DNA from: Candidatus Thorarchaeota archaeon
Lineage (GTDB): Archaea; Asgardarchaeota; Heimdallarchaeia; Hodarchaeales; Hodarchaeaceae
Length of the DNA: 32,000 bases
Assembly (NCBI GenBank): GCA_048882505.1
Contig: JBHLRO010000010.1
Coordinates: 30,001-62,000, forward strand
Direction of reading: 5' to 3'
Below the pieces are notes generated by a model that was not told the DNA's origin, made no database searches, and was given only the letters and a program-made list of their open reading frames with translations. Position 1 is the first letter of the stretch, and every line of letters begins with the position of its first letter. Positions 24,383-26,400 of this stretch are shown here, in pieces. A program made the position numbers and the translations under genes.

Positions 24383-25555
24383 TTACTCGGTGGCTTTTCT
24401 CTCAAATTGGATTCTTCTTTGTTCTAGATCAGCTTGGAAAGCGTCAATTGGAACTACTTCCTCGGCGTATTGAACACCAGGATTAGCTATGGTTCCCTTT
24501 GCGATATATTGTCCAATGATACTCGTAGGGTACGCGGTTGTACGGGCCATAGCGGAATGACCCGTGACAGGATCTAAGAGGTCTATTAATTGATAGGTAT
24601 TGGTTTGCTTCTCTCCTCGCTTAATACCATTAATGGTTATCCGTACCAATACTGCGTCAGGTGCATTTCTCGGTAAATAACGCTCCAATCCATATTCAAC
24701 AATATTACGTGGCGATATCGTTGGATTTGGAGGGAATTGAGACGAGAAAAGGCCTAATTCTTTCATCAAGACGAAATATTGGACATGGCCTGGAAAACGA
24801 ATAGTCTTGTATGTTAAATTCTGTATTTTACCTTCAAGCAAATATGGCAGCCCTCCTGAACCCCCTCCAGTATGAAAAGCTTCTAAATTTCCCCATGGCT
24901 CTGGAAAGGAGAGAGATTCAGTTCCAGTAAGGGAGGGGACAATCGTTCTTTTGCCATCCCTAATTATTACTGCATCCTCCAGATATTCGTTTGTTAGGCC
25001 GCGAATCGAAAACACACGTTGGTATTTCAATAGGGTTCTTGGTTCTTGTGGCAAACCACCCACGCGAAGATGACAATCATTGAGGATTTCAAAATCTTTC
25101 ATCTTTGCAGCAGCTATGATATTTACCATACCAGGAGCAAGGCCTAAATCGGGAATGATGACGACTTTTGCGTCCTGCGCTTCGTGATGGAGTGCTCTTT
25201 GTGCCTGAACAACACTTGGATTCCCTCCTAGATCGACAAAACTACATTCTGCAGCTAAGCAAATTTTTGATAAAAATAAATTGAACTTATAGTCGATTGC
25301 ACCAAAAACGACATTAATATTTGCCAAACGGAATTTATCGTTCAGGGAATGATTTTCGGGTTTTTCTTCTATCGAGAGGGTCAGTACGGAGGTTGAAAAC
25401 CTCTCACCAAATGATGCAAATCTGGTCTCAGCTTGATTTCGTGCCGCTTTAGCCCGGTCATAGCCAACGACAACGTGGTTTGGATTTGATGTGAGGAGAT
25501 CATGACATATTGTCCGACCCATAAAACCAAGGCCTAGTACAGCAAACGTAGCTAT
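24383..25555 (-). CDS. Saccharopine dehydrogenase / lysine 6-dehydrogenase family protein (probable ATA start)
   Basis: FVDLGG, IIPDLGLAPGMVN, VGGLPQEP, FSIRGLTNEY, EAFHTGGG, YKTIRFPGH, AMARTTAYP. The Rossmann strand ATFAVLGLGFMG lies upstream of the track ATG 25522, so the start is extended to ATA 25555. Confidence 0.9.
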   Translation of the reverse strand: MATFAVLGLGFMGRTICHDLLTSNPNHVVVGYDRAKAARNQAETRFASFGERFSTSVLTLSIEEKPENHSLNDKFRLANINVVFGAIDYKFNLFLSKICLAAECSFVDLGGNPSVVQAQRALHHEAQDAKVVIIPDLGLAPGMVNIIAAAKMKDFEILNDCHLRVGGLPQEPRTLLKYQRVFSIRGLTNEYLEDAVIIRDGKRTIVPSLTGTESLSFPEPWGNLEAFHTGGGSGGLPYLLEGKIQNLTYKTIRFPGHVQYFVLMKELGLFSSQFPPNPTISPRNIVEYGLERYLPRNAPDAVLVRITINGIKRGEKQTNTYQLIDLLDPVTGHSAMARTTAYPTSIIGQYIAKGTIANPGVQYAEEVVPIDAFQADLEQRRIQFERKATE

Positions 25556-26400
25556 AATCCATTTCCTCCTATTGAGTATGTAGCCACGGCCATCCCGTAG
25601 TAGGTTGGATGACCCGAGGCAAGCAGCTTTGATTTAAGAGTTATTTTCTCTAAAATGCCTTGGAGTAGCACAAATCCCGTAAATCCACAAGCCATGGCTT
25701 CCTCCAGTACTTCCGCCGCCTTTTCTAAAAGGAGCGTCTGATTTTTACCTTCGGACGTTATCCACTTTTGAATTAGAGCATCAAAAACTTCGGCTGTCTC
25801 GGAATAGCCGTACGGACCCTCTTGCATATGAGTATGGGCAAGATCACCACTGATAATGACGGTGATCGATTTTTGCATTTTTTGGAAAAATTCCGCCAGG
25901 AGATGTCCCATTTGCCGTAGTTCTGGGATCATGGATTTGGCTTGTTCATAACGTCTCGTGGGCTGGGACATGATCAAATATTTTGTATTGGTGTTTTTTA
26001 AAAACCAGATTGGAACAGCCTCGCCCCATCTGAGCGGTATTGATACGGTCTGGGCAAAACAGGTGATCTTGGATACAGGAATAGCGTGCTTCTTTAGCCA
26101 TTGATAACACTGCTCTGTAATATCCTGATCAAGGGGAACCAGAACTTCGTATTCTCCATACTCTTCATCCCATTCTGCGGTACCACGGGCCGATTGATTT
26201 TTGTATAGTCCGTAATCATTATCAAGTGCGATCCCATGCGGCGTTGATAGAAAGATTAGATCAGGCTTTTTTTTTGCGATCGTATCACCCACCAACCGCA
26301 TTGCATTATGTAATGGGCCGATTTGCCCAGGAATTCCTTCTTTTGAAGGATTGAGAATCATTGAGCCATGTGGGAGGATAAAGGCACTCTTTATCACCAT
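25552..26400 (-). CDS. Class III extradiol dioxygenase subunit B (LigB)-like / Memo-fold protein
   Basis: AFILPHG, PDLIFLSTPHG, LRWGEAVP, VIISGDLAHTH..GPYGY, FD, ACG, GHPTYYGMAVA. Confidence 0.8.
   Translation of the reverse strand: MVIKSAFILPHGSMILNPSKEGIPGQIGPLHNAMRLVGDTIAKKKPDLIFLSTPHGIALDNDYGLYKNQSARGTAEWDEEYGEYEVLVPLDQDITEQCYQWLKKHAIPVSKITCFAQTVSIPLRWGEAVPIWFLKNTNTKYLIMSQPTRRYEQAKSMIPELRQMGHLLAEFFQKMQKSITVIISGDLAHTHMQEGPYGYSETAEVFDALIQKWITSEGKNQTLLLEKAAEVLEEAMACGFTGFVLLQGILEKITLKSKLLASGHPTYYGMAVATYSIGGNGL

Follow-up and report, generated by a model that had tools for sequence, protein, structure and literature searches.

We examined the start of a saccharopine-dehydrogenase-family gene in a 32,000-nucleotide (nt) stretch of DNA, referred to here as the window, from Candidatus Thorarchaeota archaeon, an Asgard archaeon of the Hodarchaeales (NCBI GenBank assembly GCA_048882505.1, contig JBHLRO010000010.1). 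The draft genome comprises 83 contigs (4.3 Mb), in which the window is C10:30001-62000. On the minus strand, the dehydrogenase gene follows a LigB-like dioxygenase-family gene, and this co-directional pair shares a 4-nt stop–start overlap, ATAG (25555-25552), in which ATA is the proposed start codon of the dehydrogenase. The features of the junction are as follows.

24383–25555, minus strand: saccharopine-dehydrogenase-family (lysine 6-dehydrogenase-like) gene; read from ATA, 390 codons plus stop; Pfam domains PF03435 and PF16653
25520–25522, minus strand: first ATG of the frame; not a start but the Met within GLGFMG, which is invariant in a nine-member family alignment (M13)
25553–25555, minus strand: ATA, proposed start codon, overlapping the upstream TAG as ATAG; 9 nt after GGAGG and aligned with the ATG of the orthologues
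25556–25558, minus strand: ATT, an alternative near-cognate codon one codon upstream of the ATA, 6 nt after GGAGG
25565–25570, minus strand: AGGAGG Shine-Dalgarno motif (GGAGG at 25569-25565), within the tail of the LigB-like gene
25631–25633, minus strand: ATC, the start in the public annotation (P0123, 416 residues), directly after an in-frame TAA and without a Shine-Dalgarno motif
25552–26400, minus strand: LigB-like dioxygenase-family gene (PF02900), with its stop TAG at 25554-25552

No Canonical Start Precedes the Cofactor-Binding Motif

Both domains of the saccharopine dehydrogenase family, for which the structures of PH1688 (3abi) and saccharopine reductase (1e5l) have been solved, are present in the product, together with the GxGxxG motif and most of the conserved residues. 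Using Pfam, PF03435 scored 34 bits (cut-off 25.1) and PF16653 scored 115 bits (cut-off 31), and the NADP-binding domain PF03435 began at residue 6 when counted from ATT 25558. Since query residue 8 aligned with chain residue 9 of 1e5l, the N-terminus of the dehydrogenase can be placed in the region of the ATA.

Upstream, the frame is closed by a TAA at 25636-25634 on the minus strand. The 37 codons between this stop and ATG 25522 contained no ATG, GTG or TTG, and the near-cognate codons in the frame were ATC 25633, ATA 25579, ATT 25558 and ATA 25555. A product begun at ATG 25522 would have neither strand beta-1 nor the two leading glycines of GxGxxG. Since no canonical start lies upstream of the indispensable Rossmann strand and GxGxxG motif, we consider it likely that AUA 25555-25553 is a real start codon, directed by a ribosome-binding site. 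A preliminary description of this DNA, made from its letters alone, had already placed the first ATG inside the Rossmann motif, reported no ATG, GTG or TTG back to the previous TAA, and pointed to an ATA overlapping the TAG of the LigB-like gene with GGAGG 9 nt upstream. Direct reading of the junction and of the 37 codons agreed with that account in every detail, as did the invariant Met of the GLGFMG alignment. The ATG at 25562-25560, which follows GGAGG at 2 nt, is out of frame and opens only 20 codons.

The available gene calls set the start elsewhere. If translation began at ATC 25633, as the public annotation has it, the overlap with the LigB-like gene would amount to ~80 nt, and the product would gain 26 residues that are absent from the orthologues and are encoded inside the conserved LigB-like gene; this start is probably mis-set. 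In a separate Logan assembly, gene call P0003 is 379 residues long and begins at the internal Met 25522, and that assembly would therefore also lack an upstream ATG. Neither P0003 nor P0123 found an ATG, and this indirectly suggests that the ATA does not come from a single assembler.

Orthologues Carry ATG at the Aligned Codon

We read the corresponding junctions in loci from 40 related genomes and in two metagenome scans. The codon aligned with ATA 25555 was ATG in 16/16 orthologues of at least 47% identity. In the closest genome, G016, the protein begins M-P-T-F-A-V-L-G-L-G, while the window reads (ATA)-A-T-F-A-V-L-G-L-G. Since the orthologues all have ATG, one substitution, G to A at the third position of the start codon, separates the window from the ancestral state. 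Comparison of orthologous junctions, a check put forward in the preliminary description, thus supported the position of the start, but it also showed that the ATA of the dehydrogenase is not shared by the relatives whose junctions were read. A start at ATT 25558 would give a protein one residue longer than every orthologue.

The metagenome scan with the single dehydrogenase protein gave no match. When the scan was carried out with an alignment, relatives of at most 60% identity were retrieved, and the close ones (47–56%) whose N-terminus was covered all started with ATG. Two proteins of 71% identity on Logan contigs from other samples (P0005 and P0124) also have calls that begin at the internal Met of GxGxxG; as judged from these calls, there may be a second lineage without a canonical start.

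The Dehydrogenase Reading Frame Is Intact

The dehydrogenase frame was open over 390 codons, without an internal stop or a frameshift. Among columns at least 93% conserved in 76 family members, 106/112 were kept in the window, and the six deviating columns comprised the start Met and five others, of which three were conservative and two were common to sister sequences. When compared with G016, the non-synonymous divergence (dN) was 0.23, with synonymous sites saturated (proportion of synonymous differences, pS, 0.77). Given the absence of stops, the conserved columns and this dN alongside saturated synonymous sites, neither a pseudogene nor relaxed selection was supported. The dehydrogenase appears to show no sign of decay, and the date of the start-codon change is not given by these data.

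Near-Cognate Codons Are Enriched Behind the Ribosome-Binding Motif

To describe the genome's own ribosome-binding signal, we used 3465 long open reading frames (ORFs) from a crude ORF model, including 1117 genes with a reliable ATG. Upstream of reliable ATG codons, GGAGG peaked at a spacing of 7–9 nt, with 8, 12 and 7 occurrences, respectively, compared to 2 at 6 nt; a spacing of 2 nt was seen in 0/52 occurrences. The motif was found at 4–11 nt in just 3.4% of the 1117 genes, and its background frequency in the genome was 0.001 per position. Since the motif is rare and correctly spaced at ATA 25555, and the ATA falls exactly on the ATG codon of the orthologues, the junction is beyond what chance would give.

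For each long ORF, we then analyzed the in-frame codons that follow the upstream stop and stand at least 4 codons ahead of the first canonical start. A spacing range of 7–10 nt was preset from the ATG profile, and a range of 7–9 nt was narrowed after seeing the data. In the preset range after GGAGG, ATA, ATT, ATC or CTG made up 20/75 in-frame codons versus 7.3 expected (p = 2.4e-5), and at 7–9 nt they made up 20/57 versus 5.6 expected (p = 2e-7, or 8e-7 without the dehydrogenase). In contrast, at 7–9 nt no enrichment was observed in frame +1 (4/58, 5.4 expected) or in frame +2 (3/59, 3.9 expected), and the difference between in-frame and out-of-frame near-cognates behind GGAGG was significant (Fisher p = 2e-6).

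The excess followed the spacing of the motif. Near-cognates accounted for 6/18 codons at 7 nt, 7/19 at 8 nt and 7/20 at 9 nt, but for only 1/21 at 6 nt, where 2.1 were expected, and spacings of 1–6 nt and 10–15 nt showed no near-cognate excess. Five permutations of GGAGG and its complement were flat, while GGAGA, which contains GGAG, was enriched, as expected of a partial motif. Codons varied at the second position (ACG, AAG and AGG) were not enriched either, with 4 found versus 3.2 expected. Using four-base cores, the near-cognate excess came to ~30 genes, corresponding to ~1% of the genome, and near-cognates were estimated at ~11% of GGAGG-led starts. Since the near-cognates are tied to a motif present in ~3% of genes and ACG is not enriched, random start losses or sequencing errors do not explain the excess.

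The same start test was applied to 1.6 Mb of G009, a genome of the same genus, and to 1.2 Mb of G028, from another family. A weak trend was seen in G009, where GGAG at 8–10 nt gave 12/56 near-cognates versus 6.6 expected (p = 0.027). The gene for the initiation factor aIF1 (SUI1; G000:C26:34047-34360, minus strand) starts at a normal ATG.

A Second ATA Junction in the Window Is Conserved in Six Species

The window holds another junction of this kind.

6069–6311, minus strand: 80-codon gene with its ATA start at 6311-6309 overlapping the TAA of a 717-codon PLD-like gene; GGAGG at 6324-6320, 8 nt upstream

The aligned codon was ATA in G016, G005, G013, G001 and G003 (39–90% identity), i.e., in six species with the window, and in all six GGAGG lay exactly 8 nt upstream of it. 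The long upstream ORF ended in an overlapping TAA in three genomes, including this one, and in an overlapping TAG in the other three. The downstream ATG that the 80-codon gene has in the window is TTA in G005. ATA 6311 had been flagged separately in the preliminary description, and the preservation of ATA, GGAGG-N8 and overlap in six species bore this out. Read from these alignments, 6311 is a putative conserved AUA start with the geometry of the dehydrogenase junction, and it is the strongest single argument that such an arrangement works.

Other Candidate Genes with Near-Cognate Starts

The 7–9 nt test yielded 20 candidates, the dehydrogenase and 19 others. In four of these others, a Pfam domain or a conserved strand lies ahead of any canonical start: a Pfam domain does so in a response-regulator histidine kinase (ATA), a family-2 glycosyltransferase (ATC) and a response regulator (ATT), and the fourth is an ABC-transporter ATPase (CTG). 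The kinase orthologue in G016 (91% identity, ratio of non-synonymous to synonymous divergence [dN/dS] 0.10) has the same AGGAGG-N9-ATA and is likewise without a canonical start. For the ATPase (G000:C40:11675-12652, minus strand; L061/L075), GGAGG lies 8 nt before the CTG and the frame closes one codon upstream of it, so that the possible starts are the CTG only (or an ACG-like ACA). A 47%-identical relative in G004 has an ATG within one codon of this CTG. Orthologues of the glycosyltransferase and of the ATPase were not found in G016.

A gene of 338 codons whose family is unknown (G000:C1:28076-29089, plus strand; L060 versus L085) has ATC here and ATG in G016, with the same GGAGG at 8 nt in both. 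Across the 34 codons that precede its first ATG, there were 13 synonymous and 0 non-synonymous changes between the two genomes. Its putative ATC start is an exact parallel to the dehydrogenase case.

Two CTG candidates were set aside as ambiguous, i.e., an M20 peptidase, where in G016 an ATG lies in frame five codons further upstream, and ETF-alpha, where the CTG is conserved but a GTG stands at codon 16. At the kinase (G000:C9:68700-68730, plus strand; L082 in G016), AGGAGG is followed by ATT and then by CCTCC ahead of the ATA, and base pairing between this CCTCC and the motif could give a small hairpin. A further junction on the minus strand of G000:C9 (stop at minus-strand index 29675) has GGAGG at 7–9 nt, and the frame that follows its ATAA overlap is 78 codons long.

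The Motif Rather than the Overlap Is the General Determinant

The preliminary description had proposed AUA initiation by translational coupling. To assess the overlap as a class, we compared overlapping stop–start quartets genome-wide. ATGA and GTGA were enriched, with a long downstream frame in 16.7% and 17.5% of cases, respectively, compared to 5.4% for CTGA. Conversely, ATAA (5.3%) and ATAG (5.7%) did not exceed the CTA, GTA and TTA controls (4.0–10.7%), and the ATAA/ATAG overlap as a general explanation was therefore rejected. When GGAGG was also required, the counts were too low for a verdict, with 4/4 for ATA, 8/8 for ATG and 4/8 for the controls.

An upstream gene on the same strand was found at a distance of 14 nt or less for only 5/20 candidates, and the 1.1 kb preceding the ATA of the histidine kinase contain no long ORF on its strand. 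Since ATAA/ATAG overlaps are not enriched, few candidates are near an upstream gene and the kinase start has no such ORF ahead of it, the Shine-Dalgarno motif is the general and better-supported determinant. The proposal of the preliminary description thus divides into two parts. An AUA start is supported by the orthologue alignment, the spacing, the genome-wide excess and the ATA codons conserved elsewhere, while coupling, to which the overlap kept at 6311 in six species lends plausibility, is less well supported, given the unenriched overlaps and the five candidates near an upstream gene. By analogy with known coupled pairs, reinitiation at the overlapping stop may add to initiation at 25555 and 6311.

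History of the Junction

Two further features bear on how the junction arose.

25560–25590: position at which nucleotide identity to G016, the closest genome, drops when measured in 90-nt windows
25555–25575, minus strand: lineage-specific seven-codon tail of the LigB-like gene (S-I-G-G-N-G-L), which carries the Shine-Dalgarno motif and brings the stop onto the ATA

Identity to G016 drops sharply at the junction, from ~93% to ~65%. In 90-nt windows, it was 87–98% from 26616 to 25627 but 59–71% from 25536 to 24367; beyond the dehydrogenase it was 50–77% to the end of the G016 contig. Elsewhere the window is 85–90% identical to G016 over nearly all of its aligned parts. The break falls within ~20 nt of the start codon (~25577). 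The LigB-like gene is 87% identical to its G016 orthologue, with a synonymous divergence (dS) of 0.17. Since the LigB-like block is conserved whereas the dehydrogenase is saturated at synonymous sites, the dehydrogenase region is best regarded as a deeply divergent allele joined to a conserved neighbor. The low-identity island extends over 23547-25577 when compared with L003 of G016 and takes in the dehydrogenase and the following 279-codon gene (~50–77%). The LigB-like gene and the adjoining small TFE-beta-like gene (26495-26656) form the block most conserved with G016, up to 98%.

Among the loci examined, a dehydrogenase next to a LigB-like gene was found only here and in G016. There, the two genes are separate, each with its own stop and ATG and with an 11-nt spacer between them, and the junction is without the GGAGG motif. 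In G016 the LigB-like orthologue stops 7 codons sooner; the homologue of its TAA is the out-of-frame TAG 25571-25569 here, and a 1-nt difference in the LigB-like gene of the window bypasses the stop used in G016. Matches of LigB homologues likewise end at query residue 275–276, before the tail, in 12/17 other genomes. Together, these observations suggest that the junction was rebuilt by recombination with a divergent dehydrogenase allele.

A Model for Initiation and Its Alternatives

We propose that, at the dehydrogenase junction, AGGAGG would hold the small ribosomal subunit at the genome's preferred 9-nt distance, such that the initiator tRNA could pair with AUA in spite of a mismatch at the third codon position, and Met would be inserted. 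Ribosomes that end the LigB-like gene at the overlapping UAG may reinitiate and thereby add to initiation. In evolutionary terms, the ancestral ATG would have become ATA in a lineage that tolerates such starts. The junction would have been rebuilt when the divergent dehydrogenase allele joined the LigB-like gene, and this rebuilding would have given the LigB-like gene its seven-codon tail with the motif and moved its stop onto the ATA.

Several observations weigh against this model. ATA was absent from every relative of the dehydrogenase read at the DNA level, all of which have ATG, and since this holds for all readable relatives, the change to ATA may be very recent. The end branch of the dehydrogenase is 0.26, compared to 0.16–0.19 in three sister sequences. 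Genome-wide, the overlap class is not enriched, as described above, and chance alone would account for ~5.6 of the 20 hits that combine motif and near-cognate. In Escherichia coli, these four codons initiate at ~0.02–3% of AUG, and expression may be low (bioRxiv 10.1101/063800).

These points give some room to a recent loss of the start codon, in which the G-to-A change silenced the gene or left a truncated, inactive product from Met 25522, with the Shine-Dalgarno motif as a relic and the ORF not yet decayed. The ATG of all readable orthologues and the slightly longer end branch would fit such a loss, as would the position of the dehydrogenase in a divergent, apparently exchangeable island. 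However, with GGAGG in so few ATG genes, an ideal spacing left behind by random loss would be a rare coincidence, and the genome-wide link between motif and near-cognates, together with the conserved ATA starts, shows that such starts are kept by selection. The 390 codons also have no stops or frameshifts, and their conserved residues are kept. We regard such a loss as improbable.

Still less probable is translation from AUU 25558, which the preliminary description had named as a second candidate. This codon is in frame and near-cognate, and ATT is among the codons enriched genome-wide, but it stands 6 nt from GGAGG, a spacing at which near-cognates fell short of expectation, and the ATG of the orthologues aligns with the ATA rather than with the ATT.

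The genome is a metagenome-assembled draft, and a consensus or assembly error could in principle hide an ATG at the start or a 1-nt indel after the out-of-frame ATG 25562; with one G fewer after the latter, a plausible M-I-I-A-T-F start would arise. The separate Logan assembly nevertheless led to the same call from the internal Met, where an upstream ATG would have been preferred by the gene caller, and the public annotation found no ATG either. Moreover, ATG 25562 lies at a distance from GGAGG that no reliable ATG shows, and with an estimated ~30 or more genuine near-cognate starts in the genome, an error landing on a start codon would be the rarer event. Such an error is thus very unlikely.

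Finally, a start at ATC 25633 or a LigB–dehydrogenase fusion by -1 frameshifting before the TAG is the least probable of all, since, although the frame is open from 25633 and the dehydrogenase frame is -1 relative to that of the LigB-like gene, the ATC has no Shine-Dalgarno motif and its 26 additional residues have no counterpart in orthologues, the last 30 nt of the LigB-like gene contain no X-XXY-YYZ slippery heptamer, the RNA fold of the junction does not exceed that of shuffled sequence in stability (z = -0.17), and the genes are separate in G016.

Discussion

NCBI table 11 includes ATA, ATT, ATC and CTG among its starts, and a few bacterial genes are known to use them; in E. coli, infC and pcnB start at AUU. 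The organism studied here, as an Asgard archaeon, has the eukaryote-type factors aIF1, aIF1A and aIF2 and no IF3. In E. coli, AUA, AUC, AUU and CUG make up a separate class that ranks below GUG/UUG and above the remaining codons (bioRxiv 10.1101/063800). The bacterial near-cognate starts resemble those described here in the same four codons, in their dependence on a ribosome-binding site and in leaving second-position variants unused. They differ in number, with two or three genes there compared to ~11% of GGAGG-led starts here, and in their host, here an Asgard archaeon; in addition, nothing points to autoregulation of the dehydrogenase.

A review of archaeal initiation lists AUG, GUG and UUG only (PMC7531240), while ribosome profiling in Haloferax saw near-cognate sites but put them aside (PMC7261190). 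In the literature library searched, we found no paper on starts other than AUG, GUG and UUG in Asgard archaea. Termination–reinitiation at overlapping ATGA/TGATG pairs has been shown in Haloferax volcanii and E. coli (Huber et al. 2019, PMC6728339). As at the dehydrogenase junction, those pairs are co-directional, overlap by 4 nt and have a Shine-Dalgarno motif in the 3' end of the upstream gene. In contrast to the ATGA/TGATG used there, the overlap here is ATAG (ATAA/ATAG at 6311), a combination not mentioned in PMC6728339.

On balance, we favor the view that in Hodarchaeales, AUA, AUU, AUC and CUG led by a Shine-Dalgarno motif may form a regular, selectable class of start codons that serves at least ~1% of genes and ~11% of GGAGG-led starts and is in part conserved, with ATA permitting an ATAA/ATAG overlap with TAA and TAG stops, a coupling geometry not described before. 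Each of these starts is an ordinary exception known from bacteria; the interest lies in their frequency, conservation and lineage. For annotation, gene finders restricted to ATG, GTG and TTG cut the dehydrogenase inside its cofactor-binding motif, leaving 379 residues, and an estimated 30 or more genes would be affected likewise. Through ATAA/ATAG overlaps, translational coupling would become possible for genes whose stop is TAA or TAG as well. If the proposed class is real, the eukaryote-type aIF1/aIF2 machinery of these archaea would be weak in discriminating codon positions one and three on mRNAs anchored by the motif. Hodarchaeales are among the closest archaeal relatives of eukaryotes. 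A conserved use of these four codons that depends on the motif would bear on start-codon fidelity with eukaryote-type factors on mRNAs that carry Shine-Dalgarno motifs.

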